The notes under the pieces are model-generated. The model had not been told where the DNA came from. It worked only from the letters and a program-made list of their open reading frames with translations, and did not search any database. Positions 10,015 to 36,788 of a DNA stretch of 64,000 nucleotides are shown piece after piece. The stretch is from Balanoglossus misakiensis. Taxonomy: Eukaryota; Animalia; Hemichordata. Every line of letters starts with the position of its first letter. Within the stretch, counting starts at the first letter, position 1. A program made the translations under genes and the position numbers. The stretch spans positions 4,207,374-4,271,373 of the forward strand of contig CM082583.2 in assembly GCA_040954595.2 (NCBI GenBank), given 5' to 3'.

Positions 10015-10273
10015 ATGGAGGGGCGCGGGGTTCTCCTCTTGCTGGGCGCGTTGCTCATCCAGTCTGCCGTGCTGGTGAAGTCTGAGTACGGGAAGACGAG
10101 TGGGCCCGTCACCTGTCTCTGTGCGGACGGCGTCTCCCGCATCCTGGACAGCAATCCGCTGGTGCGAAAGTACGGGTGCTCCTTGTTTGACCACTGCCAG
10201 CGGTGCACAAGTAACCCTTACCAGCCGTGTGAAGAGTGTCCGCCCAACAGGTACGGCCGGATGTGCGAAAACG
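10015..10273 (+). CDS. MACPF gene exon 1: signal peptide plus Cys-rich/EGF-laminin-like segment
   Basis: MEGRGVLLLLGALLIQSAVLVKS hydrophobic leader; CEECPPNRYGRMCE; donor G|gtaagc. Confidence 0.85.
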
Positions 10274-12028
10274 GTAAGCAACGATTCTTAGGCTGCATTG
10301 TTGATGATGGGTTAACGCATCGTATTCTTATTCACTCGCCTGGGCGACACGATATTTCACTTAGTCGATTGTCAAATCGTCTTGGTATAATTCAGATAAA
10401 TTATGCACTTAACTGGCTGTATTCCCATCTTTCAAATTAAGTGTCGTTAGCTTTGTATTATTGAATCCATGCCATCTTCTAACTTCTGTCTATACGGTCG
10501 TGATACATAATTTCCACAAGAGCCAGTTCTTGGTACTATAAGCCTTAAAGCGATTTGAATTACTTCGCGAAAATAAGATCTTAAAATACCTGATCTTTTT
10601 GCATTTCACTGTTCTATTCGATTTTTTGTTAAAAAGGGTAAAAAAACTACAATTGTGATATTTACTAGAAAACAAGCAATTCGCAAAACTGTAGATGCAG
10701 CTTTGTAGAATTTAGTAACTGTTGATTTATACAATATTTCTGGATATCTCATAATCACAAAATAGTTGCAACCGTGTTACTTTTATATATGAATGCGTCT
10801 CTTTTAGCGAATACTTGAATTTTCAAGCCATGGTTTCCTCAGTGTTCACTTTTTGTGCCGATGATCATTCATTATACGAGTCTATTAAGATACAGCCTAT
10901 GTGGTAGCTATAATTATCATGCACTATGACAATATACTGGTATGTTGGATCTTGGACGGCGGCCAACTTGCTCGATTTAAACCATGAATTTGTAGCTCTC
11001 CAATATGAAGTAAGCTGTCTAGCTAAGGGGTGGGGGGATCGGGGCCGGTGATACCTTGCTTCCCCGCGAGTACAAGGCCAGGCAGAGAGTCTTGAAGGCA
11101 CCCAGGACCGTGGTGTCACCACTGATCCCCATGTCGACTACATCAATTACGACGAACCCCGCAAATTCGGAAATATTTGCCCATGCAGATCTCTCTTCTT
11201 TGAAATCTCAAGATATTCAATCAGTCGTCTTCAACACACCAATAGTACAGACGTTAGATTTGCAACTCTTTTCAAAGTCACCGAGCGTATCACATCCCAG
11301 TTTTGAATCTTTGGTCCAAGCTACTTTTTTACAAGATGAATTATTTTCTTTCAACTCGTAATGGTCCGCCATGTCTACCAGTTAAAACTATATCATAACC
11401 GCGTACAAAGAAGTATCAATAATGTCGCTCCATTCTACAGAATAATATCCCGTTTGCAGTTCGTCCCTCCCCTAGACTAACAAATCTTTTTAAATATATT
11501 TGTCAGTCTGCTTATAAAATCCTCTTTCCGGTAACATGTGCGTTTATCATACAAAGCGCTGGGGTGCCGTCCAGTCCATGAGTTTTATTGCCGATGACTT
11601 TTTCACGCCACCAGTGAATCTGTGCAATGAAGTTTCGTGGATATAATCACATGAAGTCAATCAACTTACTTACTTCGCCATCCATAGCCTTGCAAATGAT
11701 AAGTTTAATCTTTCAGTGAATCTGCACATAGCAAATCGTGGCCCAGCGTTAACCCGACAGTTGGTTGTTCTTTTGTTCGCAGAATGTGACTGTGGTTTGG
11801 AAATGTGTGACGATGGGATCAACGGCGATGGAGAGTGCCATTGTGGTAACGAAGAATTCAATGAAGGAAATCGTTGTCAGTACATGAGTAAGTGCCCGAA
11901 ATCTTCCCTCGCACACATCACATACATACGTCCGTCTCTCCTTCCATCCATGAATGTATACATACATACATACATACATACATACATACATACATACATA
12001 CATACATACATACATACATACATACATA

Positions 12029-12086
<58 letters not shown>

Positions 12087-15000
12087 TACATACATACATA
12101 CATACATACATACATACATACATACATACATACATACATACATACATACATACATACATACATACATACATACATACATACATACATACATACATACATA
12201 CATACATACATACATACATACATACAGACAGACATACAGACATACAGACACACACACATACATGCACGCGCTGAAGGACGGACAGACAGACATGTTGTAC
12301 CTCATTTGAATACAAGTTTGCATAATAATATAGTATGCGTACATGCCTTCTTCTTTCCCTTTGTTTTCAGGTAAAATCGTTTCAGACAGGATAGAAACTC
12401 CGCCATCTCCCGATGTGCGCGTGTTGGAGTCGCATATGTTAATAACGTGGCAACAGCGCTTGTACAGAGAAGACCCCGTCGTGTCATACAAAGTGGAGTA
12501 CAGGGTCGCCAGGGACTACGGGCGATATTCAGACTGGACCCTGTACGCGACTATGGCCCAGAGCAACGAGACATCGGTGATATTTCCCTATGAGTCAGAC
12601 GACAACGCCTTTTATATATTCCGCATCACGGCTGTCCACCAACAAGGGATCGAGGTGATGGGGCAGTCAACGGATGCAGTCAAAATTCCAGGTAATGTTC
12701 CTCCTCATAAAAGCTGAAAAATAATCCTGTGTTGCGCGTGCAATGGCATTACCTTCATGGTTTCGTTTTAATGCTTTGTTTTTGTTCATTTCAACGTTTG
12801 GAAGAAATAAAGGTGTTCTTGTATAATTATAATACATTATAGGGAAATAAACGTAGGGGACTACCCAGATACAGTACATGGTTATCATATTCCATAGCCT
12901 TATATGTAGATCTTTCAGAAACACTGTTGCAATGTTGTCATTTAATTTTCTTGAAATTTTCACAAAATGTGCCAAAAGAGGAGCTATATTTAAAGACATG
13001 AAGAATACACTATGTCACCGCGCTTGATTTTTTGATAGAGCTGGTCACATGTTTCCACCATAGGAAAACTATACAGCTCGAGGAGAGCTAGACAATTTCC
13101 GACTCAATATTTTCCACGTTATTTTTAGATCTTCTAGTTAAAAATGCAGGATGCATGGAAACACCTATTTTCTCTCAATGTTTGTGGTTAAAATTCATTG
13201 ATCTACAATAAATATATATTACTCAGGAAAATGGTTATATTTTCAATTTACAGTAGACTCCCACCTTTATTATAAATGTTTCCTTGTGGTTTGATTTGAT
13301 TATACTAGGTACCCCACAGCAACCGGGAAACCTCCGCGTGCAAATTGTCCAAGGCAATTCCATCACACTTGCCTGGGACACGCCGCAAGAAGACGCATCC
13401 TTTGGCGGCGAAGTGCTCGGCTACATCGTTCAGATGATGAAATTCGGACATACGGACTGGGTGACGTACGCCGACTCCGACTTCGTTGAGAACACCATCA
13501 GAGTAATGGATTTGGAATTCACCAGTATCTATCGATTCCGAGTGGCGGCCAGAAACAGGCTGGGCATCGGTCCTTGGTCCAACGAGGAATCACATCTTTT
13601 AACAGGTAAGGTTTTGCCAGCCACTGTTGGAAATATTCTTCCAGATCAGCGCCAGTGTTTAATAAACGATAAACATCGGGCTTTGCGCGCGGTGCAGTGG
13701 ATAGCCGAAATCTTGTCAACGTATGAGAGGTAACACTCCATTGAGTGTATCATGATCGTTTAACACGAAATTTTGAGTTCAGAAGATATTTTTACACCGT
13801 AAGCCAAATAAAAAATATGTGCTGTTCCGATAACATGGTTTTCAAAAATAGGGTAGGTAGGTAGGGATTTCTTTTATTTTGCATTTTTTATATGTTTGGC
13901 CACTGTAGTGTAGAACAGTGACGTCATAGTTCTTGCGTGTGATTCTCGCAGTTTTCATAAATTTTGTATATTTGCCATCGTTATTTTACTTCCGGTTTAC
14001 GAAGCTCAGAAAAGTTTAGGGTCCGCGGGTTAAAATTAGGGTAGGTCGGGAATTCGGAACAGCCTATATTTTTTTATTTGGCCTAATGCTCGTAATCTAT
14101 ATACGTGTATATGCCAATAATGAACAAATTAACCGTCAGTATCGCCACATGTGTAAGAAGTGAACATGCACCTTTATTTATAAGTCTTTGGACTTTTCCT
14201 GTTTGGGGGGATTTTATTAACACAAACGTTGCAATCTGGCAGATTCCTTGGAATGTTTCAACAACGATGACGCCTCAGATTATCGAGGTAGCCAATCTGA
14301 AACGATTGATGGATACGACTGCATCAAGTGGACTGACATTGATCCTGAGACTACTCCGCTTCACATTACGTCATCCTATGAACTCACTATCGAAGAGATC
14401 ATTGCGGTAAGCATTTCGATTTGGCACTTGACGACCCTTGTTATTTTCGCAAAAGGCCAATCGAATCTTCGCGGCAAAGTCTTGGAAATATCTCTGTAGT
14501 CTCTTAGAAGCGCCCAATCCAATATTTAATTAAAGCTGCAAGCAGCATTGAAGGGGCCCAAGCATAGAGTTAATAACCATTAGAATCCATTCAGGGTTGT
14601 ACCATTCAAATGCGTAGGCTGTATTTGCTCTCGATGTTGAGATATAGGAAAGTAGGCAACCACCCGAAATGCATGTCCTACAAGTACAAACACAACAAAC
14701 AAAGGTGAACTTCTCCGTTGTAAATACCATACTTCAGTAAGTACTTCAAAGGCCAGGTGAGGGTACTCAAAAATTGGACCAAAAATTAGGATTCTTATTT
14801 GGTTCATATTCAAGACAACGGAAAATACTCGCCCTTTGGGTTGGTCAAATTATATATGGCCATAATAATGAGTTTCGCAAGTAAGTTACAGGTGGCCCCA
14901 GGAATTTAGCATTTCATGACGCAAAGGGTCCTACCCTACCCCTCCAAACACCTGGCTATATATGATGTGCATGCTAACATATGGAAAGCAGGTCAATGGA

Positions 15001-18000
15001 CACCTGAGGTCTCCCTAATTTTTGTCAAAAAATTTTCATTCCTGCTTATGTCATGTGCAACAAATCCTACATTTGCAGCCCTTTCACTTTGCCTACCATT
15101 AGGTATGCACGTAATACATGAATCAAGCAGGTGTCACAGGTATCCCCCTGTATTTGGCATTTTATGATAGTTTCATCCCTCCAAATACCAAAGCTGCACC
15201 TGTACAACGTGCTGAGATATGGCACTGTACGACAGAGGTCATCCAAATCACCTTATACATTTGGGCAAAAACCAACTGACACTTACATTCGTCCCTGTGG
15301 AACAAAAACCACACATATCGCCCTGTTGGTTAGTGTCCAATTAAATGTACAAAATCAATGACTTAGGCAGGTGCAACAGGTGACCCCGCCTTTGGTATAT
15401 CATTATGGTCCCATCCGTATATCCCCACCCCCACCCCCCCCCCACCACGCCAAAGCTGCATGCATCTGCTGTTATTCACTAAGCAAAAGTAGGTGAAATG
15501 TCACATAAGGTCGCCCACAACTTGACAGGAAAATCGGACTTCGTATTGATCCATGTGCAACAAATACCACGCTAGCACCCCTTTCATTGACCCCACAATT
15601 ACACATGCACATAATAGAGTTACGCAGGTGTCACAGGTGACCCCCCGAATCGGGCGTATTATTTTGGTCCCATACAGCTGCATGAAGCTGCGTGCCATTA
15701 CGGGGGACCTGATAACCCCCACGGCCACCTGCGGGCCGAACCCAATACTGAACGTCCAGTTGCAACGTCACGACTGAAGTAGGAACTTTTGAACGGCAAT
15801 GAAGCCTGATCTCTGATGGTACTATACTCCCTTCGTGCAAGAAAATCACTGGTCTGCTTACGTATTTAGGCCAATTTCCCGAACTACTATCCACTACATG
15901 TGACTACCATGCTAATGATGAAACCTCCTACAACATTAGCGACTGAGGGTCAAAGTCCGCTGCCACATTACATTGAATGTTAACCAGTGTAGCCGGGTCT
16001 GCGTAGACACATTTGAACGGCAACAGCTAACAAACTCAGCGTAATTCAATAAAACGCCCTAACACAGCCTGAACTCCGATAATGTGTTGTCCCAAAATTC
16101 ATTCCGTGGAAAATAATCACTGGTCTGTTTACGTATTCCAGCCGATTTTTTCAAGGACTAGTGCAACCCGCCTGCTAATGAGATCTCCACAACATTACGT
16201 AATGACGTTCAAAGTCCGATGCCCCAGTGTTCGTCCTCAGCCCACCAAAAAATGCGAAAAATATTACAAAAATCTTCTTCTCAAGATCGACGTGGCCTAG
16301 GACCTTGCAATTTTGCATAGGGGATTTTGGCCACATGGTCTACAAAAATCGCGAAAAGAATGTACATGCCCCCATTAACGTGCAAATTAGGTCAATTTGA
16401 AAATTTCGCTCGATTATAGCCACCAAGTCACGTGACTAATTACAAATTTAAAGGGCAGGTGCACCAGTACTCATGGGCCCCAATCACCGTGCCAAATTTC
16501 AAGGTCCTAGGCCACGTCGATTTTGAGAAAAACGGGAGCAAAAAAACGACTCAAGAAGAAAGAAGAAATATAGCTGCAAGCAGCGATGACGGGCACAAGC
16601 TTAAGCTGAAGGTCAAAGGTCATATGTGGTCACCCAAAATTTGGGCAAAAAGTTCGATCCATCCAAACACAAATGCTGTACCTGTTCTGGATGCCAAGAT
16701 ATAGGAAAGTAGGTCAAAGGTCACCTGAGGTCACCCAAAATTGGGCAAGAAATTTTAATCCCATACTGGTCCATGTTCAACAAAAATCAAACCTCTAGCT
16801 CTATTGGCTAGCCTGGAATTAGGTATGCACATAATTAATGAGGTAAAGTGTAAGGCTCCATTAGGAGTTCCATCCCTCCAAATGCCAAGGCTGTATCTGC
16901 TCTGGTTGCCGAGATATGGTAAAGTAGGTCAAAGGTCACCTGAGGTCACCCAAAATTTTGGCAAGAAATTTTATCCCATAGTGGTCCATGTTCAACGAAA
17001 ATCAAACCTCTAGCCCTATTGGTTAGCCTGGAATTAGGTATGCGCATAATTAATGAGATAAGCAGGTGTCACAGGTGACCCCAAATTTTGGCTTTTCAAT
17101 TATAGTCCCAACCCTCCAAACTCAAAGTCTGTACCTGCTCTGGATGACGAGATATAGGAAAGTAGGTCAAAGGTCACCTGAGGTCATGCAAAATTTGGGC
17201 AAGAAATTTTGACCCTATAATGGTCCATGTCCCACAAGCACGAAACCTCTAGCCCTATTAGTTAGCCCAGAATTAGGTATGCACATAATTAATGAGTTAA
17301 GCAGGTGTTACAGGTGAGCCCAAAATTCTGCCTTTTATTTTGGTCCCATTCTGCTCACTGCCAATAGACTGTCACTGTACAGGACCATTGCACAGATGTG
17401 GGAATAGCATCACACCTTAACTAAAGACAGTATAGGCTCATGGGTACAAAAAATATGAAATATAATATTTAAAAATCTTCTTCTCAAACTTGACTTGGCC
17501 CAGGGCCTTGAAATTTGGCATGTAGGACACTGAGCACATGGTCTGCTAAAATCGCTAAAAGAATTTAGATATCTCCATTACTATGCAAATAAGGCCCATT
17601 TGAAAACTTTGCCCATATATGGTCATCAGGTCATGTGACTAATTACACATTCACGAGGGTACTGCACGAGCTCTCATAGACCTGCACCATTGTGCCAAGT
17701 TTGAGATTTGTAGGTTCAGCCGTTTTCAAGATCTACCTGAGCAAAAAAACTACACAAGAAAAAAAAAAAAAGATGAAAAACCCCAGTAATACCAATAGGG
17801 CACAAGCCTGCTTGGCTTGTGCCCTAAAAACTCCAGCAATAACAGAAGGGGACCAAGCGCCTGAGGGCGCTTGGTCCCCTAAAAATGTCTGCAAATGTCA
17901 CTGAGCAACATAGACAAGACTTGCACAATAAGACCAAATGAATGAACATACGCATCACAATATAGACATTATCTGTGTCAGTTTTACGTTACAGCAACCA

Positions 18001-21000
18001 CCAGTCTTGTATAATGAATACATTGGATGTATATTCCCAGACAGTTTGAAATGCACCAATGCCTCCGAGCTCTTGAAACCACAGTGAAAAGTATCCGCGC
18101 ATATTTGTCTATTTTGCAAATTATATCACAATACTCATACTTCTTTCATTTCGCTGTCGTTGTACTCCCATTTCGTTGGTGCAATCACTTGCAGGTCGAC
18201 GCACATCTTCAAATTCTTGTTGTTGCATTTCAATGTATTTTTGTGGATTTTGTTTGTTCTCCTCGACTTTTTCGAACGCATGGACATAAATGGCTGTACA
18301 AGCAGCAGGCGCCTGCGGTATAGGTCTCTGCGTACAGGTCTGTGTGTTCCCAGCGTTACACGGCCTCAACCATATCCCTGCAAGGTTCTATAGACCAAAT
18401 TGGCGCGTCTGCAGTTCGGATCGGGACCGTAGCTTTTCAGTCGAAATTCAATTTCATCGTGGCAAAATCCTTTTCCTGACTAAATACCTCTTCCCTCTAA
18501 CCGACCCAAGAAATGATGCGATTAATTTCGCCTATCTTCCGAACCGCTCGATTTCTGAAACGTGTGTTTTCACCCCATGGATATGAACTCGTTGTATTCA
18601 ATATGGCGATCGTGTAAACCAGCAATCGATTTGATTTTCAGCGCTCTGATGTCTTCGCGTACAATCCTGAAAGTTCGCCCTCACAAGGTATAGGGGAACA
18701 CAATTTCTGCCGAAATCCTCGAGGGGTGGCAGAGCGTGCTTGGTGTTACGCCACATTGGATGCTGTGCAGAAGGAGTGTGACGTCGGAACCCCGTCGCAG
18801 GATCCTTGCCCAAGCAGTAGGTCGCATGTCGTCGTAGGTTCAGTAGTAGATTCTCTCACAGCCCACGGTTCGCTACAAGGCTCTTCACTGACGCGCCCTT
18901 AACCACACATGCAATCAGACTATTCTAAGCCTGCATGGACGGCGAGAGGGGCTGTGAGAGAGTCTAGTTTTAAGTAGTTGCTGTTTTGCGATCCGATCCA
19001 CCGCTACAGCGAAAAGTTACATTTACAGCATCGCTTTCAATCATTGTATTTTGCCGCTATATTTATGCGTTCTCTCGTTTGATCTCTGAAATTCTTATTC
19101 CACAATCTTCTCGGCCATGTTGTGCTTCGACACACATCTATAATAAATTGATTTCAGTAGAATACTAACAAGTCATTCCCAATCGAAAAGTAAATTCATA
19201 TGAAGTCTATGATATTCTCCGTAACAATTTAATAGGACTGTCGATGTTTGTTTTAATTTGTCCCCGAGGGGCATACTACCCTAACGCCATAGTTTTATCA
19301 TCATTGCAGAGTGTGCGCCGGGGTTAATGCTGTCAAGCACTGGTACACGTGACTGTGGTAAGTGTTGCTAAAGCTTGTGCTCTATTAATCCGTGGTTACT
19401 GAACCCATTTTATGAAACGTGCTAATATGGAACTGTATAACAGAGAAGAGTTGCACTGAAAGACAGTTTTATGAGTTTCACGACAATTTATCGCAAATTT
19501 GCACATTTTTAGTCTTTACCAAAGCACGTACACGTGAGCATATTCAGTTCATATCTGGTTAATTAATGTACATTGTCGTGAGGGCGTGGGGTAATCTTCT
19601 TTTGTATTTTGTACCTAGTACCTGATGATGAATCACGTGTATACAGTAAGGTGCCTTTAACAAACGGAGAGATCTGCACATGCTCGTTTCAAGCGAAAAC
19701 CACTGGGGAATACCTAAAACCCCAATCCTACTTGGGTTGGACGTACGCATGCGCCCATGCAGTGAGCCAGAGCTCAAGACCTCTGATAGAAAATATCTTT
19801 AGCATGGACGCCGATGTCTGCTACCACGAATGTATACAAAGGTAAAATTTAGAATGTCTGTAATTAATGATTTAGCCCTTTTTTGTCCTAAGCATCGGGA
19901 TCAGTTAGAAGGTATTGTTATTTTCAATATGCCCTTCCTCAATATCAAACTTTATTTCAGCATGAGCTGGTTGTGTCCTGGTCTCCATTATGTATCTACC
20001 AATCAATGTTAACATTGTGACCAATTTATATAATGAAATGAAATTTGTCATGGGAGCCGGGTCATCTATGGGTGACATTTAACACCAAAGGCCGATTTGC
20101 AGTGTGTGGCCGACGTCACAACTATTCAGTCCACTGTACATCCTGCTCGTCTCTTATGAAACACTGCGTGGTATGTACTCAGTCTTATTTTCGTTCCACT
20201 TTTGAAGCGATGGCTGCGAGGCCTTCGCCTACTCCACGAATGGATTCAACGAGACCATGTACATCAACCAGACCAACCTCCGACTCTGCACGCTGTTCAG
20301 CAACCTCCACCGTCCGGTTGAAATCCAGAAAGCGGACGTGTGGACCAGGCACCTTTCCCAAGAGATACCGGACGACAATTACATTCTGTCGTGGGGCTGC
20401 TGGTCAGCTTTGGATCCGAGGAACCCCTCTGAAATCTGGGAAGGTGTCAACACACAGAACTTTTTGGTTTTCGATGACGTAGGTAAGCGATAGCATTCAG
20501 TGACGTAATGGTGAACTAAGGTATACTGATGACTACCCAGATGCAGTGCGTATAGTTATCACATTCCACAGCCTAGCATGTACAATGTCGAGATAACAGT
20601 CTTAAAATCTTGCCATGCTCTTGAAATTTTCACAAAAAGTACCAAATGAGGAGTATTATTAAATGTTCTAAAGAACACTATGTCCCCGCGCTTGATTTGC
20701 ACATGCATATTGTACGCCGCATCGAGTAATTTTAAAAATGCAAATGATTCGTGACTGAAATGTCTCACGTCAATGGCCCAATACTTCAGCCTGTCAACAA
20801 GATTATTTGTGGTTTTCGTTGATATCGAACTAGCCAAACCCTCTCAACAAACCAAAACAGGTTCATATCTTCACTACAACGTCAAAAATTCAAATCTGAA
20901 CCAAAAATGTCTTTCTTTCTTGTTTGTTTTTAGCCTACAAGAATTACACCATTAATATAACCATTTCCATGGCACCAGACTCAGGCATGTATATTTCTAT

Positions 21001-25000: not shown

Positions 25001-28000
25001 CGGCCGTGTCGGGTGTCAACATTCCCGCCAGTGTACTCATCGATGTGATCGACACTAATTCAACCACCGACATGGCTATCGAAGTAGTGTCTGAAAGTCT
25101 CCGAAAATGGATAGAGGTGAGTTTTTTTTGTAAGGCAAGAGCAATGCTTCATAGCAAACACGAACACAATTTGGAATCTCTGTACGTACACTTCAAGTTC
25201 CACTCGCGTCTATAACTGCCGAAAAAAATATAGCGCTATGCCCAAGTCGCGTAAAGAAATCGATTTTAGGACATAACTAATCATGTCTGCCTATTATCTA
25301 AAAAAAATTGTTTGGAAGGATCAGTCAGGCACGAGAGTCAATGTTTACCGTCGGAGGCACGCATAAGTTATATGGGCTATGCATTTAAATTTCTGCAACT
25401 GCGGAACGGATTTGTATTGGTGCACACGAGTATAGTGAGAGTCAAACCTACAGCCCGTCAATCCTTCAGCTCTACGCCAACGAGGATTTATTATACATGT
25501 AATTCAAAATTTTATTGTTGTGTTCTTAGGAACGGCTCAATGGCCACAGCGTTGCCGGCCGTTATGGCGTAATGATCCGCGCTTTGAGAGATTATCAGCA
25601 GGCTGGTTTTGACGACATTATCGACTGGTCGGGTTCAAGCTTGAGACCAAGAATGAAGCTCAAAGTGCAGGGTAAGTAAACCTCAGAACTAACCAATTAT
25701 TAAAGAAAAGATAGAGCGTATGACCTAGCAACGGTTTGAGAGTTTTTGAATATGGATTGTCTTTTCGTCCTCCTTAGATAGAAATAAGCCATATATTTCA
25801 CACGACCTAAACCAAGTTCTGGCAGTCCGAACAAAGTAGTTTTTACCAGTGGCAAACATGTGCTCAGAGATGCCCTGTTTTGTAAAAGTAGTCTTATCGA
25901 GTATTATTGAGTATTTTCTGTACAATATTTGCACAGCTTGTTGATATTATTTATATAAAGTCTCTTTCATTTTACCACAAAATTTCCATCAAATTTATTT
26001 GATTGGAATGTTAAGTGGTGTTAATGTCTACCATATCGTTAGACTAAATTTGCATTGCAGCACATTTTCAAATCGGCATTGGGACACGTAATCTTTACAT
26101 CATATGCAGTCCTTTGATATCAATAAATAAAAATGTCCTTTCAGCTGTTGTTCCAAAGAAGAAGAAGAATGCTTTGTCTGTACATTTTCAAGCTTCATTT
26201 TGGATAGCATTCTGTAAGCTGTTCCAGTATAGCACGGCGCAACAGTTCCATTAACGCTGCGCTGCGACTTCCGTTATTTCAGTGTACAAGTGGCTGGTTG
26301 GTCCCTGGTCAGAGTGCACACAGTCCGACCAGGCGTGCGCCGGCGGTCTTCAAAGCAGGAAGGTCTCCTGTATCGATGCCGCCACCAACGTGCCTGTAGA
26401 CGAGAACTTCTGTCGTTTCCACCCACGCCCGCACTCCGAACAATCATGTGTGACCTCATTCGAACCCAGGTAACCTGCTTTAGGCTAAAAACCAAATTCT
26501 TGATGTGATAACGCTTTTACTTATAATTGCTGGTGTTGACAATGGGTCGCTTCAGTCCGTGTTGTACATGATGAAATAGATACAGTGTGAATTTTAGAAG
26601 TGAGTAAACGCCTCGGGACAGATGATCAGAAAAAAATGATGGCCCTTCAGAGCTTTGCTGCATTCAGTGTCTATTGACCCTTTCTGGAAACGAAGAAGAA
26701 AATAGGGTGTCCACCAAATCACTACTTTACATTTTCTCCATCATAGAGTTAACATAGCGATGGTGGCCATTTTGAATTAAAAACAGAACAATCCGTCTCT
26801 TCCATGTAAACTTTTTTCACGCTGACCCCAAATTTTAGTCTCAATATTGAGTGAGAATAGTCTAAAGTTGCTTTTAGTAAATAATGAGAAGAAATTTAGG
26901 TCTAATTTCCGAGGTGGGTGCTACCTGAAAGTGTGTTCGTCAGGCCGGAAAAGATGGCTGTTCGCCTACTACTGGTCTTCAAGTCACGTGGTCCCATAGA
27001 TAGGCTCTCGGAACAATCCTGACCGGCGGGAAGATATTCCACTCATGTATCGGTGTATGTCTGTTTTGCAGTTGCTATGCGTGGAGACACTTGCCCGACC
27101 CAAACACCGCCTGCAGGAACACGGGAGGGTGTGGAATTGGCACCATTCCGGGTCACATCATTTGCCAGGATACCTACAGCATGGAGAAAGTTCCTGAATA
27201 CTACTGCCGCCGGCACGAAAAGCCAAGTCTGGAGGACTTTCCGGAATTCGGGTAAATCATTTCATAAATTTCCTCAATTTTCCAGTAATGCTGCTCGTAT
27301 TTGCCATTAACGTTGAGCAGACGCATCTATTATTTTTTTCAACTTTTTGCAGTGTCGTCTTTGAAACCGTGTTTACTTGAAATGCACTGTGCAACAATGA
27401 TGCGGGATATGTATGCTTATTATAAGTTGAGAAAAGCTCGTAACATTAAACCCTAAGACCAAATATTAAACTATTATCATTAACAGTAATACAGCCATCA
27501 ATTTAAACTCAAGTACACCAATATTGAAATGCAACACCAACGTAATGTCTTTGTTAATAGTATGGACACATCTTGCTAGTTTAGGACCCTTTACTTACTT
27601 TCCAGATTTGAAAATATCCGTAACTTGTACACAGCAAACGAATAGTATAGGAGCGAAGGGGAAAGTACTTAATTTGAGGAGCTGTCCTTATAGACATATA
27701 TTAAAAGTCGACATATTCGAATCTAATAAAGATTAAGTCGTAATTGTTGTTTTCAAACTAATTTTCAAACGTTCTCCGCACATATTTTGTCAGTTGTGCA
27801 AAGTGGTACATTTTACCGAAATAATTGTAATTTCAATTTTCAGATGCTCTGATTTCACTCGATGCACCTACGATTGGGAAATGACGGACTGGAGTGAATG
27901 TTCAGATGACTGCGGAGGGGGTTATGTGGCAAGGTATGATCACTGCATTGCAAAGTCGAATGTGTGTGTATTCGATGTAACAGTTGAAAGATATGTGTGG

Positions 28001-31000
28001 TCTATTCAAATGATTCAGACTTGATTGGTAAGCATTGGCGAGTCCATATGATTACATTGATAATTGCTAGAAAACAAACTTCTACTATTGTCATTTTCAC
28101 GAAATGTTACTCATAGCTCAGTCAAGCAAAAATGAATTCATTGGTCAACTAAAATCGTATGGTCACCGCGCTCTATTTTGAGATAAATTTCGTTAAATAT
28201 TTTGCTCATAGACAAACCATTGGTGTAAAATGCTGAGTCAGCAGTTTTCTTCTATTAATTAAATTTATGGCTCTGTATTTCAAAAACAACCGCGGTGACC
28301 CCTATATTTTATGTATTCTGTACTTCTTGCAGATCCGCAGATTGTTTCAGCAGCAATGGCACCCAAGTCGACGACAAAAAGTGCACAGCCGTACCTAAAC
28401 CTACAACCCAAGAAAAATGCCAGAATTATAGCGGTGAGTTTCAATTGATACTCGCTTGCCCCTTTCATCGTGAAAACTAACGGCGAATTAATTCAGACTA
28501 CTTCTATCACAATTTTCATTCTCTAAACCATAAAATATCTCTGAGATGTAAACAATTTCATATTAACAGTCATGGTGAAATAGGATCAGGAAAAAAATTG
28601 TTTAGACGACCAGTACTTAAATGACGTCATGTCACAAGCACTGTCCGTGGTAAATGTTACTGACCGAAATCGATGATAAGTCTTCCATCATGCGCCGTAG
28701 TACCCCTACTGACTCCACCCTGATTATTTCCCAGGTTGTGACGTCTGGGAATCTCTGCAGCTTCTACGCCAGGATCAGATTTACAGTGATAGATCACAAA
28801 TTCAACGACAGATCAATCTAACTGTTCCCATGGTCCAAGCCGAAGCGGCCCTCATGGACGCCAAGCAAAACATCGCCGCGAAACATCTGGAACATATGCT
28901 ACAGGTAAACACCGCGCGGTAAACTCTCAATACAATTAGTTAAAGGGACAAAGTCTCTCTCTCGCTGCCCATTTTCCATTAATTATGTTTGATACAAGAT
29001 ACCGTTTTGTGGATATATAGTGAATCAACTTTCAACCACACACAACTTCCATCCCGCTTGTAGACAGGAGAGTGAAAAAAACCTCGCCAAAATGAATTAT
29101 CGGTACGTCTCTACCATTTATTCATTTTGAGCGAGTTTTTAATCTCATATCATACATGCGGGAAGAAGATGTGTGCGGTTGAACATTCATTCATTTACAT
29201 ATACATGTACACATGTACAAATACATACATGTAAACGGTATATTGTATCAAACATCGATGGAAAATGGGCAGCGAGAGGGAGACTTTGTCCCTTTAATCT
29301 CTAACACAAGAAATTGGGAGCTTTGCGCTACATTGTTGTAACGACTGTCGGGCAAATGATTCAACTGTTCCTGTTTTGGAGAACTAGAGTTATTTTTGCA
29401 CACAGTTGAAGTTTGGAGATTATTTTATGTGGCAAATGTTTTAAAGGGCGTTTTATGGAAACCTTGCCTCTTTGAACTAAAGTTATACCAGTATATATTA
29501 ACCCAAAGGGACAATCTACTTCAGTTTATTTTTTAAGCGTGGGTGAGCATTATTTTATGCCATTGATTTTTCTTCTATCACTTTCCTTTACAAGACAATC
29601 CGTGCGAATATGTCTATCCCGGAAGAACTCGCAAAGGCAGAGAGTTTAGAAGCTCTAGCTCGACAAGCCGTCGCCAAGAATACGATCCAAATACCTAGAG
29701 AAGGCAGTTTCTCTTATCCCAACGTCGGCTACCTGGGGCGTGGCTATGACATCTTCTTCGGCAATCCAATGAACGATGACGGTTCTGTGGATCCAGGCTT
29801 TCGGCAGGCTGTTATCGGTCTGACGTATGACCAGGTGAGGTATTCGGCCGATAGGAAGTTTCTCGTCCCGGACCAGGCTGACATCATACGCGAGATGGGC
29901 AGCTACTTCGGCTCGACGACCTCCATCATAACGTCCGAGAGAAGCTACAAGGAGTCGCTGGCCACCGAGGTCAGCGTCGGCGGCAGCTACTCGGGCCTGT
30001 TCGCCAGCGGCTCGTTCAGCGCCAGCGCCTCGTACGCCAAGATGAAGCAGTCCACCATGAACTCGCAGAGCGTGTTCGTGGACATCATCGGCAGGGTGCT
30101 GGTGTACGACGCCCGCCTGGTGCCGTTCAACATGCAGGTCAGCAAAGAGTTCCGAGAGGCGGTCAGCAAGCTGCCGGGAATGCGCTGCTGCGGCTTCAGC
30201 ACCCGCTGCCACCCGGACTGCAAGCTCTACGATGAATTCATCGCGGCGTTCGGCACCCACTACACGCAGACGGTGCTGATGGGAGGGCGCGCCGTGCAGC
30301 GATACCAAATGACGAGCAATTCCATGGAAGAACACCAGTCGCAGGATGTCGGTGTTGGATTTTCAGCTTCGGGTGGATTTGGTGGTACGTATATACACAA
30401 TGCCACAGTCAATCCACTTAGTGACCGTAACAGTCTGCACATCTACACTGACATATTGCAAGCCCCTTTCTTGGTAGACATACCAGCGAAGAATGTTGTT
30501 TTTAACAAATCCAACCATAGCCAAAATAATGTAGAATCTATCACGTATGTGTGTATTATAAGCGACTGTCGCATTGAGAAAGTAAGGGTGGGTATGAGCA
30601 CACAGCACACATGGTTGTGTTGGCTCGCAGGTACTCTTGTCGTCTGCATAGCCTCGAGACAAGCATACATACAAGTAAATACGGTGTCTCCCATGCTGTT
30701 ATAAACACATTACATATCATTCATTTTTTTCCCTTCTCCATCAGGTGTTGCTTCTTTCAGTGCAAGCGCCAGCTTCAAAATGTCCAATTCTATGAGCAAC
30801 AGCCTGTCCACATCATCAGCTTCCAGTAAAGAATTCTTCTTGGGCGGCGAGGCAGGCGTCGGAGAAATATCCGAAGGAAGTACCGATTCCATGAAAGAGT
30901 GGTCGAGTACAGTATTCGACAACCCGGTCCCCATCCGCTACAAACTGTCAACGGTTCTTGATCTCATAACCACAGATATCTTCCCGGACGATAGCAAAAT

Positions 31001-34000
31001 ACAAGATAAACAAGAGGTAAGTACAGTAGACATACGTTCAGCACACTTACCACGAAAACCACTACAAGGCTATGCATGCGTTGAGCATACAGTACATATG
31101 TATAACCTAATCTATCTGCATGGTTTGAGTTTTGGGGCGACTCACAGGCCCGAGGAGACACAAATGTATGAAGTTACCCAAATATGACCAGTCAGTACGT
31201 GTTTCATGCGACACCTCATCCGACAGTAGCGCATTGGGGGAAATCTCTCCGCTGTCATCAAGTTAGACGACATCGCCATCTTTGTTTACGTTTTCTGGGG
31301 TGCGCATGCGTAGATGGTTCTTTCCAACTTAACCAGACAACCGTTCGAAAACTGTTGACCGGTAACTGTAAGTACAGAAGTAACAGCGCCAAAGTGACGC
31401 ACCCCACGTGACTGCACATCGGAGAATCACTTGCAACCAAGATTACGAATGTGGTGTGTTATCCCACAAATAGACGTGTGCATTTTATAAACACGGGTTT
31501 CTGCTTTCACGGTGATTCAGGTCCTTCAATCAAGGTATCAGAGTTACTGCGGTCGCATACCCAACGCTCAGTGTGGAGACTTCAGCACACAGGAAGATAT
31601 CCAAGAAGAGAACGTTGTCCACTTTGGCGACGTCGTCCACTTCATCATGGACAGCACCGATGGGAAACAATTTGTTATGCAAGAGAAATTGAACGCTCTA
31701 TATGTCACTTCAAGTGATAAAGGTTAGTACATATACATGTATATATGTTTGCCTGTGTTTAAGTGAAACTCAAAATCTGTGAACGTGAATTGCAGCACTC
31801 CTATTGTCTGAAATAATGCTGATCCTTGTGTCCCATTCGCGGAGAACACCTTCCCATATGGTGACATAGGTTGCGATGGTGAGTATACTCAAATCCAGAT
31901 GCACGTGTTGAGAAGACCGTCAATCTGTGATATTGAAATTACATGTTATCCGCAAGAAAACCGTTGTATGCCCAACAAAGTGCAGCCGTTATATCGGCGC
32001 AGTCATGGCAGTATGGAGCTAAACACACACATTGTAATCTCTGTCCTACCAGGTACCCATTACTCCTGGGTGGAGAGATTCCACTGTTCTAACAACTGGA
32101 CTATGATTCGGGCTGACTTGATCATCACGTATAGAATCAAAATAAGAGGAATATTTACCACTGCTTGCTCAAATATAGCCATTATCGCCCGATATTTATT
32201 GCAAAATAGTGTGTTTGGTCCGTTCGTGGCTTAGCCTTATATCTTAATTAGCTGTCGAATACCAGTTTGCATTGATATAGTCTTACGTGAGATTAATTTT
32301 AACCCAGGTAAACAATTTCAGAGAATTTTCATAATTCGACTTTCAGACTTCAGATACTGGTTTCAAACGCCAACTATCACTTCATTGTCCGGTAAACTGT
32401 GTACATGGGTGCAGAAGACCTCTAGAGGGCGCCAGAATCCACATGGTACTGACTGGTTGAAATTCATGACAGAAGTAACCACTCGTATACACTCGAGATC
32501 GGTCATATATAGAGGTACAGTAAAATGTTGTCAACGACACATTTTATTACTTCAAACGTGTGTGTTGAGGGGTATACTTGTCCAGTTTGGGGTTATGGTT
32601 CGGCTGAGTATACTTTGATGTGTTGACGTATTTCTTTGCAACGTGAGTAAAAGCTTCATTATCTGTAACTTTTCGCTATATTCTCGGTACTTTTGTTTTG
32701 TGTATCTATTGCATTTTTCTGGTCCAAATTCCTGAAGCATGGTGAAATACACAGTATCTAGCTCATCAGCAGTATAGTTAACATTGTCGTTGTGCAAAAC
32801 TTTAATTCAAGTCCGGACTAGAATTAATTTGTCAACAATGACAATGGCCGTTACACACATACAGGATATACTCTATGTAGACAAGCGGAATACTCGATAC
32901 ACTAGCATGCTGTTTGCAGTAGAGAAAGAAATGGCATTTGATGCACAGAACATAAATACTGGAAGTAAAGCCAAAGATACAGCTTTTGTCCCTTTAATAA
33001 ATTGCGGGAATTTTCGACTGTACTGATATTTATTTTATTTTTTGGCCATTTTGCCTTAAATAAGTGTTTTCTTGAAATACTATCAGGCAATATCATTTAA
33101 TAGACGGAATCAGACATTATTGAAAACTTGAATGTGTTAGGTTCATAATAATGCATTGTGGGGGGAAAGTGGCAAGTGTCACTGTGTACCATGTGACCTG
33201 GTCTCAAGCCATGATTGTATTACAGGTGCGAAGCACTTTTGGTTTAATTAATGTAAAATGCAAACAATAGATATGCAATGCAGCAGGCCATCCAATGGCA
33301 AAATGTACTATGTATGCAAAAATCACCCTCGGTGATGGCTGCTTAACACACAAATTGACATTTCCAAGCAAAACATCATGGGCTTCTCATTATTGGTGAC
33401 ATCATAGTTTTAATGAATTGATTACAGGGATGTCGCAAGACGTCTGTGAAGAGCGATGCAAGCAGAGGAGCAACTGCAAAGCTGGCAGCCACACTTCAGC
33501 AGTTGCAAATGGTTTCTGTATACTATTTACATCACCTGAACACGACAACTTTAGGGCACAATTGGTAAGCAAGATTGATCCAGTGTCCGTCATCGTTCTG
33601 ATCAAGTTATATGCAAGTTGTATGTGCATTTGCATAAATGTCTGTACTTGTACATGTCTTGCTGATCTGTGGCGTCTATACATGAATGGGAATCAAGCAA
33701 ACGATTCATCCAAGAACATGTTACAAACAAGCTCACTGCCTCCCACTGTCGCATCACGTTATATTTGGAAATGTCCGCAAACAAAAGCGCAGTTAAGTAT
33801 CGTGCCCCCCCCCCACCTAGTGTAACATCAGAACTTAGTACGGGATGTCAATCTGCTCCTTCATGATATGTTACAGGGCTATGCTGATGACTTAACTTAT
33901 CACTGGTCATGCTACAATGAGTTCGACCCCGAGCGATTTGGCGAGGTGTGGCGTGACCTTCGAATCTACAGTTTTAGAGCTCGGTTTAAAATAGGTAAGA

Positions 34001-36788
34001 CCTGCCGATGCCAGACGTTGTGAGAGAAATGCATCGTTCATTCGGATGTTTCATTTTTTTACGGCCAGGTGCTGAATAATTTGCGTAATTTTATAACGGA
34101 TTTATTCATCTATCTTGACGTGTCATTATTTTTTTTCTATAGGCGAACGAAGGAAGATGTTCTCTATGCTTTCACCACTGTCTATAAATAACGTCAAAAA
34201 GGAGACGATTGCTTATGGAGATCCTGTAATACTTGTAGGCTGGAATGGTGTGGTGAGCCAATATGACGACTTCTGGGGCATTTTCTTCTCTAGCGAGAAT
34301 GTATTTGATAAAAAACATCTTAGATTCCAGTTCGTTAATGACTACAAGACAAACGGAATGCCTGTCATGTTTGGGGATGATATTATGATAGCTGAACTCC
34401 CTAGGGATGACGCTGAAAACACCCATACATTCTTGATGCAACCTCTTCCAGCTTACCTAACTGTACCAGCCGGTAAGTACCGTGGAGGGACACATGTGTT
34501 GGGGCAGGACCTGCCTACTCTTTTCGAAACAACTGAGATCCCTTATATTTCGTTCACGGGCTTGACTTTATTCTGTGTGTGCTATTTTGTTGTTGCCTGT
34601 GTTTCGCTGCGTTGTATATTAGTTCATTTTCTTGGAAGAGGGCGAGCACGGTAAAACAAATTCTAAGAACCTTGACAAAATGATATATTTATGTCAGGAG
34701 GGAGCAAAACTCCGAATGTGGCGAACATTATAAACAGCTGTCGATGTTCACAGACGAATCCACGAGTTCTCCCATAGTTCCTGACATGTGACAGTCTGTC
34801 GTCAATCACGTGCTGGGTCGAGTTGTATCGCAAGTAGGACATACAAGCAAATGACGTCATTTTCTTTCAAATCGGACACCAGAACTAAGCCTAACACATC
34901 GTAATTTTTTTCTGCTCTCAGACCAGGAACATTGGCGCATTAGGCTTCACAATTGTTTTTTGTTTTGTTTTTTTCTTAGAGGGATACGATCGATACACCG
35001 GCCATCAAATGCTTTTTGCAGCCATCTGCTTCATTGTACGCTGGTTTACCGAGCTGTGCTTTGACGATTCTACGATCGCCGTTCGATCCAAACCCTACGA
35101 CAGTGGCTCCACTAACGCTTACGTGTGGAACATCACAAAGGCTGACATCAGAGGTCTGATTCCCCAACCAAGCCCGACGCCTCTGTCAGGGCTGGAGACG
35201 GTCGACTTCGTAACATTAGAAGACCTGAAGAGTCTTTCTGTGAAGGTGAAATTTACACGACCCGTAAGGAGGAGGACTACCGTACCCGACACAGTGGCAG
35301 ATGAGGTAAGCCACGAATTTGCACCCATTTTGGTAGTCTGGTCCCCTGCCCCAAGTCCACCGCTGGCTGCGCTACGCTTTCCTTTAGCGTAGCGCAGCCA
35401 GCGGTGGGATTGGGGCAGGGGACCAGACTACCATTTTGGTTATACATGTACAATGTATTGAGCGTAGTTTTAGCATGTAGATATTTAATGTTTGGACAGC
35501 ATCCTATGTCAGTGCCCATCTTAGATGCTCCCCTGATTATGCAGAAAGCAAATGTCATAAAATTTGTTATACGTGTATAGCACTGTAGATCTAAGTGGGA
35601 TATGGTGAGTGTGACGTACTTTGACACTATGATGATCTGTCATTTAAACATTACATTAATTTGATTGATGAATTAATTGATTGATTGATTGGTTGATTGA
35701 TTTGTTGGTTGGTTGATTGATCGAGTGATTCATTGATTGATAACTTTGCTAACTTACATCTTACAATGAAAGAATTGCTTTTTTCTTCATTTACTATCTT
35801 TCTTTGCAGTCGCCCAATGTTGGTTCCTTACCTGGCTACGATGCACGAGAGCTGATCAGTAGTGATTTCAATATCCGGCTGAAACGGGGACAAACGCAAG
35901 AGTATTCCCCGGTACAGCAGTATTTTGTATATGGAGGACGAGAGACGATCGAATTTCAACTGAAAGTGGTTTTCCAGGTGAAAGTACAAGACGGCGACAC
36001 CATCCGACTAGATCTCTCTGACCAGGTAAAGTATAATTGCCATTGTCGTCGTTAGGATCATTGTCGTCTCATGTATAGAGTTTGCATTAAAACTAACTTG
36101 GCAACAGCATACGTATACAGTTGGCCAAATGTTAGCTCCGGTGTCCAGTATAACAGTGCCTTATTAACTAAGTCTAGAATAAATATAAATAGGCTCTTAC
36201 CCAATCACGAAAACTTTGTTTTTGGCCAGATAATTAGCTTCATTATGTAAGATAATCATTATTGGACCTGATCTGATGTCATCTTGACCTTCACAGATCG
36301 TAAGTGAAGACAGTGATGAGTTAGGTGGTGAATTGTTCGTGGAAGAGGATTTATATCTGGAGCCGTCGTTTACTGTTGAAATTGCGGATGCTTCTTCGCT
36401 CTTAACAAACGACGAGGAAGGCCTGAAGAACGACAACTTTACGCTCAGGGTGAACTTCAACAAGCCAGTGGTGAACAGCGAGAGAGAACTGCCCAAGATA
36501 TACGACTTCGAATTGCTCGACGTCTACAAGCAGCCCGTGAGTGGCATGATACTACGCGTCGAACAGGCTCGCACCGGCTGCAGCTCCGGGAACATACAGC
36601 CTTGCCCGACTGATTTCAACATCGTGGTGTCCACGTCGTTTCTCGACGGGCAGCGTAAGTTCTACTTTGACGTTGCGTCGGCCCGCTTGAAGTCGAAGAG
36701 CGACTTCACGTTTGTCAGTCAGCAACAAACACTAATTGATATCGATGAGGTGATCCAGGAATCCGAGCCCGACGAACCAGAGGCATAA
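10015..36788 (+). CDS. Giant secreted multidomain MACPF/perforin-like protein (~32 exons, ~2,350-2,380 aa)
   Basis: Exons: 10015-10273, 11783-11887, 12371-12691, 13309-13605, 14243-14406, 18642-18816, 19310-19357, 19619-19841, 20208-20482, 20934-21151, 21288-21429, 21578-21781, 22428-22719, 24315-24391, 24785-25116, 25530-25671, 26283-26469, 27072-27251, 27844-27933, 28333-28433, 28735-28904, 29595-30384, 30745-31016, 31521-31722, [31796-31878, 1 nt short], 32347-32514, 33428-33564, 33877-33994, 34143-34472, 34980-35305, 35810-36025, 36297-36788. All introns are GT-AG with matching phases; the frame is continuous except at the bracketed exon. Confidence 0.85.
11783..11887 (+). CDS. MACPF gene exon 2: EGF-like (stabilin-type)
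   Basis: CDCGLEMCDDGINGDGECHC...GNRCQ; cag| acceptor, |gtaagt donor. Confidence 0.85.
   Translation, partial: NVTVVWKCVTMGSTAMESAIVVTKNSMKEIVVST
11957..12262. repeat. (TACA)n/(CA)n microsatellite
   Basis: Directly visible, intronic. Confidence 0.98.
12371..12691 (+). CDS. MACPF gene exon 3: fibronectin type III domain 1
   Basis: PP.P.V...LITW...VVSYKVEYR...W...YIFRITAV; phase 1-1. Confidence 0.88.
13309..13605 (+). CDS. MACPF gene exon 4: fibronectin type III domain 2
   Basis: PQQPGNLRV...SITLAWDTP...GYIV...L...YRFRVAARNRLGIGPWS; phase 1-1. Confidence 0.92.
13800..14085. mobile_element. MITE, family A (TA-flanked)
   Basis: ta-agccaaataaaaaatat...atattttttttatttggcc-ta; homologous to 4836-5128. 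Confidence 0.8.
14243..14406 (+). CDS. MACPF gene exon 5: kringle N-half
   Basis: ECF....DYRGSQSETIDGYDCIKW; donor |gtaagc. Confidence 0.85.
14532..17885. mobile_element. Non-autonomous Helentron/HINE-like element (outer) containing a nested related element at ~16569-17830
   Basis: Start agctgcaagcagc followed by aggggcccaagc; terminal hairpin aggggaccaagcgcc-tgag-ggcgcttggtcccct plus AAAAA; degenerate tandem core units inside. Confidence 0.65.
16569..17830. mobile_element. Nested Helentron/HINE-like element (inner) with ~215-238-bp tandem cores
   Basis: Start agctgcaagcagc...gggcacaagc (16591-16600); end hairpin tagggcacaagcc-tgctt-ggcttgtgcccta plus A-run; cores match 60124-61090. Confidence 0.7.
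18642..18816 (+). CDS. MACPF gene exon 6: kringle C-half
   Basis: GIGEHNFCRNPRGVAERAWCY...ECDV. Absent from the ORF track. Confidence 0.88.
18847..18966. mobile_element. Short TAG...CTA-terminated MITE, family C (inverted copy at 41059-41199)
   Basis: TIR tagattctctcacagccc / gggctgtgagagagtcta. Confidence 0.75.
19310..20482 (+). CDS. MACPF gene exons 7-9 (19310-19357, 19619-19841, 20208-20482): linker plus PAN/apple domain 1
   Basis: DADVCYHECIQS-DGCEAFAYS...LCTLF PAN cysteine pattern; splice phases 1,1,2,1 are consistent. Confidence 0.78.
20934..21781 (+). CDS. MACPF gene exons 10-12 (20934-21151, 21288-21429, 21578-21781): PLAT/LH2-like beta-sandwich, Cys-rich linker, furin site RQRR
   Basis: YTINITIS...SG..ISIIIIG...NVGFITTLKV...VEQIFI resembles PLAT; RQRR at 21757-21768. 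Confidence 0.7.
21900..22290. repeat. Compound microsatellite (TCTG)n-(TATG)n
   Basis: Directly visible. Confidence 0.98.
22428..24391 (+). CDS. MACPF gene exons 13-14 (22428-22719, 24315-24391): C-type lectin domain
   Basis: KTWHDAVDTC...LVKI...FWING...WEAGEPN...CLQL...FDDDSCSQKKKFICQ. Confidence 0.9.
23341..23483. repeat. ~143-bp near-perfect palindrome (probable non-autonomous DNA element)
   Basis: agcaataaaacacccccagccatggtataccac...gtggtataccatggctgggggtgttttattgct; centre gcactcgctatcgctcgtgc. Confidence 0.85.
24785..25671 (+). CDS. MACPF gene exons 15-16 (24785-25116, 25530-25671): DNRLRE/CBM96-like domain
   Basis: AMLDFNI...IVEEVILAL...ISEPWTRTAVSGVNIP...IEVVSESLRKW...YGVMIRA...RPRMKLKV. 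Exon 15 needs the AAG acceptor at 24782-24784 to stay in frame. The exons are well supported; the domain name is inferred. Confidence 0.7.
26283..28433 (+). CDS. MACPF gene exons 17-20 (26283-26469, 27072-27251, 27844-27933, 28333-28433): three ADAMTS-type TSP1 repeats (middle one degenerate)
   Basis: YKWLVGPWSEC...CAGGLQSRKVSC; YDWEMTDWSECSDDCGGGYVARSADC...VDDKKC...KP...C. Confidence 0.88.
28735..28904 (+). CDS. MACPF gene exon 21: helical linker
   Basis: cag|gt tgt gac...cta cag|gtaaac; open, phase 1-0. Confidence 0.8.
28940..29297. mobile_element. TTAA-flanked MITE with long TIRs (Kolobok-like termini)
   Basis: ttaa-agggacaaagtctctctctcgctgcccattttcca...tggaaaatgggcagcgagagggagactttgtccct-ttaa. 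Confidence 0.85.
29595..30384 (+). CDS. MACPF gene exon 22: MACPF domain core
   Basis: YLGRGYDIFFGNP, EFREAVSKLP, YDEFIAAFGTHY-x6-GG signature; donor G|gtacgt. Confidence 0.95.
30745..31722 (+). CDS. MACPF gene exons 23-24 (30745-31016, 31521-31722): end of the MACPF domain and start of the C-terminal region
   Basis: FFLGG...WSSTVFDNPVPIRYKLSTVLDLI...LQSRYQSYC, typical of the MACPF C-terminal part. Confidence 0.9.
31796..31878 (+). CDS. MACPF gene putative exon 25 (83 nt, 1 nt short of frame)
   Basis: tgcag| acceptor and G|gtgagt donor; adding one A to the run at 31811-31813 gives ALLLSENNADPCVPFAENTFPYGDIGCD. Confidence 0.5.
31985..32078 (-). mobile_element. Fragment of a tRNA-derived SINE core
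   Basis: ccaggtacccattactcctgggtggagaga resembles, in reverse complement, a conserved central block of invertebrate SINE2 families (recalled, not searched). Confidence 0.4.
32347..34472 (+). CDS. MACPF gene exons 26-29 (32347-32514, 33428-33564, 33877-33994, 34143-34472): PAN/apple domain 2 and beta-trefoil-like repeats
   Basis: MSQDVCEERCKQRSNCKA...FCILF (PAN); IAYGDPVIL and VMFGDDIMI repeats; phases are consistent. Confidence 0.75.
34980..36788 (+). CDS. MACPF gene exons 30-32 (34980-35305, 35810-36025, 36297-36788): C-terminal Ig-like repeats, acidic tail, stop
   Basis: SVKVKFTRPV...DFNI and FTLRVNFNKPV...DFEL; canonical splice sites; TAA 36786-36788. Confidence 0.8.
35334..35430. mobile_element. 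97-bp hairpin MITE with 9-bp TSD
   Basis: ccattttgg|tagtctggtcccctgcccca...tggggcaggggaccagacta|ccattttgg; a related half-copy lies near 48091-48134. Confidence 0.88.

Follow-up and report, generated by a model that had tools for sequence, protein, structure and literature searches.

We identify in the acorn worm Balanoglossus misakiensis (assembly GCA_040954595.2, contig CM082583.2) one intact gene for a precursor of the MACPF/perforin family. It lies on the forward strand at positions 10,015-36,788 of the window, i.e. the whole 64,000-nucleotide stretch of DNA that was analysed. Judging from its sequence, we favour a product that would be a secreted, glycan-targeted pore former directed at microbes on the surface of mucus or gut, a reading to which we assign a probability of about 50%.

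Hemichordates adjoin echinoderms and chordates. According to PMC11312191, reports of C6-like terminal complement proteins are confined to cephalochordates, urochordates and vertebrates. The window gene encodes a candidate lytic effector for hemichordates, a conserved MACPF protein with its own lectin that appears to be pore-competent. With about 2,350 residues it has double the length of any MACPF chain among the matches of solved structure (1,120 residues at most), a size that raises the question of how the modules stay clear of the ring as it assembles. At least two of its conserved modules lack a family assignment. Its significance is tempered by two facts: giant shuffled mosaic proteins are common in marine invertebrates, and the enteropneust family is already present in public annotation as 'uncharacterized'.

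A single gene of 31 exons

We read the raw DNA over 9,000-39,999 and set the exon borders by eye and by hand. The resulting model starts with an ATG at 10,015, ends with a TAA at 36,786-36,788 and joins 31 exons into 2,350 codons (Table 1). The exons have a GC content of 51%, against 39% in the introns. In leave-one-out scoring, 28 of the 30 donors fall within the top 5% of 1,226 intronic GT sites, introns 2 and 6 being the exceptions; the acceptors are weaker, with 15 of 30 within the top 5% of 895 intronic AG sites. As the exons were chosen by eye, phase compatibility alone is partly circular, and homology provides the independent test.

The original prediction counted about 32 exons for one polypeptide of roughly 2,350-2,380 residues. 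The single gene holds, with start and stop as placed, but the additional exon, a candidate at 32,053-32,128 that would bring the product to 2,373 residues, has no match in the six proteins tested. Both versions are free of internal stops and have GT-AG borders at every intron; since the candidate is without a match in relatives, the model of 31 exons and 2,350 residues is preferred.

Table 1 Positions, in the window, of the exons with their modules and of neighbouring features
Feature	Position	Strand	Remarks
GT4-conflict ORF	434-1699	+	Single long ORF; family-4 glycosyltransferase of 'GT4-conflict' type, a class linked to conflict systems; PF20706 E=5e-72
Partial repeat	3675-4046	+	Near-exact repeat of the last ~75 residues of the GT4-conflict ORF
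TATATAA	9968-9976		47 nt ahead of the start codon; possibly a TATA box, or else part of the acceptor site of an untranslated 5' exon
Exon 1	10015-10273	+	ATG, predicted signal peptide (~23 aa), N-terminal Cys-rich module with 8 Cys
Exon 2	11783-11887	+	6-Cys EGF-like module; 76% to P0016
Exons 3-4	12371-12691, 13309-13605	+	Two FN3; PF00041 E=1.6e-4 and 3.9e-12
Exons 5-6	14243-14406, 18642-18816	+	Kringle, intron-split; PF00051 profile positions 4-35 and 35-76
Kringle intron	14407-18641		4,235 nt; several interspersed-repeat copies and short inverted elements
Exons 7-9	19310-19357, 19619-19841, 20208-20482	+	Short linker (exon 7, 48 nt) and first extended PAN
Exons 10-12	20934-21151, 21288-21429, 21578-21781	+	Beta-rich module, earlier called PLAT-like; RQRR at its end
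Exons 13-14	22428-22719, 24315-24391	+	C-type lectin (motifs EPN, FDD); PF00059 above cutoff
Exons 15-16	24785-25116, 25530-25671	+	DNRLRE/CBM96-like module, weak assignment
Exons 17-20	26283-26469, 27072-27251, 27844-27933, 28333-28433	+	Three ADAMTS-type TSP1; PF19030
Exon 21 (28735-28904) and start of exon 22	28735-29710	+	Predicted helical hairpin of ~90 residues before MACPF
Exons 22-23	29595-30384, 30745-31016	+	MACPF; PF01823 E=1.3e-15 and 1.8e-6
Exons 24-28 (31521-34472)	31521-31722, 32347-32514, 33428-33564, 33877-33994, 34143-34472	+	Remainder of MACPF, three xFGDxV/I-type repeats, second PAN
Exons 29-31	34980-35305, 35810-36025, 36297-36788	+	Two predicted Ig-like beta-sandwiches, basic patch RPVRRR (exon 29), acidic C-terminus, stop
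AATAAA	37180-37185	+	Candidate polyadenylation signal, 392 nt past the stop
Tctex-1 ORF	45178-45798	-	Tctex-1 family dynein light chain; PF03645 E=4e-22
Mitochondrial carrier exons	50286-51768	+	PF00153; may resemble SLC25A46

Full-length relatives in three acorn-worm families

A search of proteins of 1,883-5,000 residues gave five matches among 2,969 candidates: four enteropneust genes and P0019, a metagenomic protein. The closest relative, XP_070539755.1 of Ptychodera flava (2,321 aa), is collinear with all 31 window exons (E<1e-3) and shares 64% identity over the matched residues. XP_077992423.1 and XP_077978826.1 of Glandiceps (G. talaboti) and XP_077870384.1 of Saccoglossus (S. kowalevskii) each match 29 of the 31 exons, at 52-54% identity. 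The corresponding genes are LOC144446518 (2,329/2,360 aa) and LOC144434246 (2,343 aa) in G. talaboti, and LOC100370048 (models of 2,313/2,373 aa) in S. kowalevskii. All the full-length enteropneust relatives are predicted gene models annotated 'uncharacterized'. Three families are thereby represented, Ptychoderidae by P. flava, Spengelidae by G. talaboti and Harrimaniidae by S. kowalevskii.

The agreement of four genes in three genomes with a model made from raw DNA supports a single gene. Two or more separate genes, or a characterised family of the same architecture, were the outcomes that the original prediction had named as contrary to it; what we find are exons collinear with full-length relatives.

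It is highly improbable that the interval holds two genes, or one gene with two products, an N-terminal secreted lectin/adhesion protein from exons 1-16 and a separate MACPF protein. Such a division is seen in the annotation of a second P. flava copy, which consists of two models on one 45.6-Mb contig. The first, XP_070567032.1 (1,092 aa), covers exons 1-16 and ends four residues beyond the end of exon 16; the second, XP_070566443.1 (P0001, 1,075 aa), matches exons 21-31 at 65% in a search limited to 462-2,000 residues. However, the four genes of the three species are annotated full length, and XP_070566443.1 lacks a signal peptide and has its start within the third TSP1 repeat, as expected of a broken model. 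Given this mid-domain start, we take the split annotation for a broken model, or for a copy in decay, and not for the normal state. In the window itself, the exon-16 donor and the exon-17 acceptor are strong and in phase. Just two intronic ATG frames resemble a hidden signal-peptide exon, one in the kringle-splitting and one in the MACPF-splitting intron; as both lie inside introns that split a domain, a gene border is excluded at either place.

A tree was built of the MACPF core, with 14 rows, all input proteins kept and a midpoint root for drawing only. In it, the window gene pairs with XP_070539755.1 (85/100), to which it is 82% identical in this core, and the Saccoglossus gene pairs with the second P. 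flava copy (97/97). These pairings suggest a gene duplication before the three acorn-worm families split. The copy number is low, with one or two genes found per species. Among the four full-length genes, mean identity is highest in MACPF (73%), followed by the helical hairpin in front of it (68%); the first FN3 has the lowest value (38%).

We found no echinoderm or amphioxus relatives in our searches. A word search with exon 15 proved insensitive: it retrieved none of 133 candidates at E<=10 (194-2,000 aa) although P0022, a half-model of a paralog, exists. The missing relatives are therefore weak evidence. A metagenome scan with the family alignment matched one of 256 candidate stretches, L001, at 31% and in MACPF only. 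Judging from these gene models, the arrangement is a conserved giant MACPF architecture of acorn worms.

Modules along the chain

Domains were assigned by Pfam searches of 30 window exon peptides and of the full-length relatives. From the list first proposed, two FN3, a kringle, two PAN, a C-type lectin with EPN, three TSP1 and MACPF were recovered in the window or in its relatives. Two Ig-like domains agree with a medium-confidence model of the relative P0001, and the DNRLRE-like label is weakly supported. The EGF-like, trefoil and PLAT-like labels fared worse.

Exon 1 is a 62% match to residues 8-87 of XP_070539755.1, and its peptide has no match in Pfam. The EGF-like label of exon 2 is one that we take from the cysteine pattern; no Pfam match covers the N-terminus among the window exon peptides. 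The kringle carries an insertion of ~20 residues relative to the enteropneust relatives, and it is devoid of the acidic DxD motif that forms the canonical lysine site of kringles. The first PAN passes as PAN_1 in the Glandiceps and Saccoglossus relatives; together with the second extended PAN it constitutes an internal repeat (hhalign 95%, E=1.6e-8).

The beta-rich module of exons 10-12 has 53% mean identity among the four relatives. PLAT was detected neither by phmmer of exon 10 nor by Pfam (0/4 members), and a profile of the four sequences gave nine matches in the PDB, all at E>=0.22 and none of them PLAT; this label is thus unconfirmed. The RQRR motif noted earlier is indeed present at the end of exon 12. 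No transmembrane segment was found in the window exons, whose sole Kyte-Doolittle peak above 1.6 is the N-terminal signal-like stretch. Two relatives have internal peaks of 1.64 and 1.76, both within the exon 10-12 module. Altogether, hydropathy agrees with the original statement that there is no clear membrane anchor.

For exons 15-16, the leads are weak: exon 15 alone reaches NF033679 at E=0.16 (12 bits against a cutoff of 34, residues 8-109), and an ESM Atlas cluster at 0.92 contains CBM96 in 11% of its members. Pfam has no DNRLRE or CBM96 match in the full-length relatives. Among 1.84 billion representatives, two proteins match the module at E<=0.001, both from P. flava.

The C-terminal half was modelled through P0001. 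A first model (mean pLDDT 52) resolves MACPF and PAN only, a second (mean pLDDT 42) only the tail. Both place helices at residues 22-79 and 84-105, in the hairpin that precedes MACPF. After MACPF, the second PAN (PAN_1 E=0.0011) is inserted behind the first xFGDxV/I-type repeat. These repeats reach only 20% in hhalign, lie in a region of pLDDT <50 and have no trefoil match in Pfam among the window exon peptides; a beta-trefoil fold is possible.

The Ig-like tail, the last ~260 residues, corresponds to P0001 residues 818-1075, with medium-confidence pLDDT of ~50-78. Foldseek matches it to antibody light chains, and VIA superposes it on SbsC domains with a Z of 9.8 and an rmsd of 11.2 over two domains, which speaks for the fold class only; ESM Atlas gave no usable match for P0001 450-1075. 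The basic patch RPVRRR, kept in all five full-length relatives tested and in P0001, could be a contact for anionic surfaces or a second cleavage site.

The MACPF domain

In the window, PF01823 scores 58.6 and 28.7 bits against a cutoff of 21.5. The signature F-G-T-H-x7-G-G and the GG..W motif occur in the window and in 5/5 full-length relatives tested. The domain also has two matched hairpins of ~45 and ~51 residues, with limits set by eye and alternating hydrophobic residues. According to PMC5483515, Y/F-G-T/S-H-x7-G-G defines the MACPF signature, hairpin lengths are matched in pore formers, and GGXnW is found in pore-forming MACPFs and absent from astrotactins, Torso-like and BRINPs.

The model of P0001 has a MACPF fold, with a Foldseek E of 5e-16 to TgPLP1. 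The nearest solved structures are those of TgPLP1, MPEG1, Mpf2Ba1, C8 and perforin, which we class as pore formers. Motifs, hairpins and modelled fold support a MACPF domain that is probably pore-competent.

The same chain could also be read as that of a non-lytic or locally acting protein of the extracellular matrix or of development, similar to apextrin or Torso-like, and we keep this as a lesser but real possibility. Its MACPF domain would polymerise or remodel the animal's own membranes, while the FN3, TSP1, kringle, PAN and Ig-like modules would bind matrix and partners. Most modules present are indeed of a type usual in matrix and adhesion proteins, and strong conservation with few copies fits such a role. 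Apextrin is a secreted MACPF deposited in the larval apical matrix (PMC8361754), and developmental MACPFs are known (PMC5483515). However, the GG..W motif and the matched hairpins are kept in the window gene and, according to the latter source, lacking in developmental MACPFs. Furthermore, no ApeC appears among the Pfam matches at E<=1 in the four full-length relatives or in P0001.

The basic site and the lectin

Directly before the lectin, the window has RQRR, and RERR or KR stands at this place in 6/6 full-length models of the four related genes; in three of these four genes the site is only dibasic (KR). The precursor is likely cut in two here, after exon 12. The original 'single-chain' description is thereby kept for the precursor, and the mature form is likely to be of two chains.

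The lectin has EPN and FDD/LDD in all six full-length models. A canonical Ca-dependent lectin of mannose type has EPN, then Glu, and a motif of the WND type; here the Glu after EPN is missing. In the paralog half-model P0022, the EPN match is lost. Recognition by the lectin and kringle modules is plausible, but with neither the lectin Glu nor the kringle lysine site, the presumed recognition array may be partly structural. Of the binding to glycans or lipids first proposed, the glycan part remains plausible with incomplete motifs; the lipid part depended on PLAT, which none of the searches bore out.

The CBM96-like module also brings up a digestive lysin, which would be secreted into a deposit feeder's pharynx or gut and use the same pore mechanism to open swallowed microbes and algae as food. 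CBM96 binds alginate, DNRLRE domains are found in polysaccharide-degrading enzymes, and the two, being related, occur in bacterial polysaccharide enzymes (PMC9971899). In sea urchin, macpfE2 forms a ring around the stomach, shows no change upon infection and is possibly dependent on feeding (PMC11688612). Given that the CBM96 assignment is weak, and that such a lysin is inseparable from gut defence by sequence, we consider it quite unlikely.

Proposed mode of action

For the glycan-targeted pore former, we propose the following course. The signal peptide would direct the precursor to the secretory path, where a convertase would cut after exon 12. This would release an N-terminal chain of ~800 residues, made of the Cys-rich module, two FN3, kringle, PAN and the exon 10-12 module, and a chain of ~1,540 residues that begins with the lectin. 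Mannose/GlcNAc-type or acidic polysaccharides of a target would then be bound by the EPN lectin together with the CBM96-like module, with the TSP1 repeats and the helical hairpin serving as stalk or brake. Finally, MACPF would oligomerise and its two hairpins unfurl into a beta-barrel pore, and the PAN/Ig-like tail may contact membrane or wall.

This reading is favoured because of the MACPF motifs and hairpins, the pore-forming nature of the nearest structures, the position of MACPF as the best-conserved module and the presence of EPN in every full-length model. Several points count against it. Fast-evolving immune effectors usually do not combine low copy number with high conservation. Some 1,900 residues of accessory domains must fit around the ring. 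The lectin Glu and the kringle lysine site are missing, P0022 has lost the EPN match, and the cleavage site is KR only in three of the four related genes. PLAT is unconfirmed, and the models give no fold for the repeat region behind MACPF. Apextrin, though a secreted MACPF, is described as a matrix protein (PMC8361754). As for possible sites of action, macpf genes of sea urchin are markers of immune cells and of gut cells arranged in a ring (PMC5073156 and PMC11688612), and the hemichordate epidermis is highly secretory (PMC13554239).

Comparison with known MACPF systems

Full-text searches of freely accessible papers turned up no characterised family with the same arrangement, in line with the original claim, and no mention of LOC100370048. 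The main text of the Schizocardium single-cell paper has no MACPF. A Schizocardium marker table has at least eight rows for a single gene that bears the name C4bpa and is labelled MAC/Perforin; by its name alone, we set it aside as a different gene, of CCP type. The principle of a lectin joined to MACPF is already known; the module arrangement and the family are undescribed in the literature searched. The further claim that known MACPF proteins are all far shorter, with few modules, was overstated: the TgPLP1 type has 1,120 residues, a coral protein 920 and P0019 2,142.

The enteropneust proteins XP_070539755.1, LOC144446518, LOC144434246 and LOC100370048 share length class (2,313-2,373 aa) and module order with the window gene, at 52-64% identity. 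TgPLP1 (PDB 5OUP/5OWN; 9XDA, chain of 1,120 aa) is the best MACPF match by sequence (E=7e-12) as well as by fold. It is secreted, as is predicted for the window product, and long, but has ~22% identity, in MACPF only, and none of the N-terminal modules.

C6-C9 and C6-like proteins have in common with the window gene TSP1 before MACPF, secretion (predicted for the window product) and the absence of an anchor. Their order is TSP1-LDLa-MACPF-EGF-(TSP1-CCP-FIMAC), as given in PMC11312191. In contrast, the window gene has TSP1s of ADAMTS type, and the helical hairpin replaces LDLa: no LDLa is found at E<=1 in the four full-length relatives, and the hairpin stretch, which both models show as helical, contains no cluster of cysteines. 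CCP and FIMAC have no Pfam match in these four relatives either.

In the snail PV2, a lectin delivers and MACPF perforates within one particle, the two being united in an AB toxin (bioRxiv 2019.12.23.880021). The window product would act on a similar principle. PV2 is made of separate subunits, two disulfide-joined chains with a tachylectin beta-propeller, whereas the window gene holds a C-type lectin, of another fold, in the same precursor. A one-gene analogue of PV2, serving as an anti-predator toxin of eggs or skin mucus, is improbable: we see no link to PV2 in the sequence, TgPLP1 is the nearest among the MACPF structures solved, and conservation across three families of differing life style would fit it poorly.

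The coral proteins P0008 (719 aa) and P0012 (tachylectin-MACPF-PANx2, 920 aa) of Oculina have PAN after MACPF, and P0012 has a lectin in front. At ~23% identity, they form a separate clade in the tree and have far fewer modules; they are also uncharacterised. P0012 of Oculina patagonica is a one-chain counterpart of the PV2 pairing. Another homology match, P0003, is a MACPF carrying B-lectin.

P0019, a metagenomic single-ORF EGF-MACPF, matches the hairpin and MACPF at 32% (E=8e-46), shares part of the post-MACPF repeats (E=7e-5 among 21 proteins compared) and groups with the acorn-worm proteins (96/95), though its branch is long. Its N-terminus is different, it has large insertions, and its hairpin match taken alone is weak (E=0.13). 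None of 42 candidate stretches matched its locus in the metagenome scan. P0019 is a lead to the origin of the hairpin-MACPF-repeat cassette. A bolder, and in our view unlikely, extension would make the gene a one-gene complement: recognition by the lectin, a bacterial-type CBM96 and PAN, a proteolytic switch and a pore would be contained in one precursor, with the hairpin as brake and, as P0019 hints, a hairpin-MACPF-repeat/PAN cassette that would be older than animals or have come from outside them.

Apextrin (MACPF-ApeC), secreted in echinoderms, shares MACPF with the window gene, which is without ApeC. MPEG1/perforin-2 and astrotactin have a transmembrane segment, and the window gene has none. 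Astrotactin combines EGF with FN3; in the window gene FN3 stands far before MACPF, not after it, and GG..W is present. By domain, motif and fold, the last taken from the relative P0001, the window gene belongs to the MACPF proteins, as a member distinct from C6-like, apextrin, MPEG1 and astrotactin.
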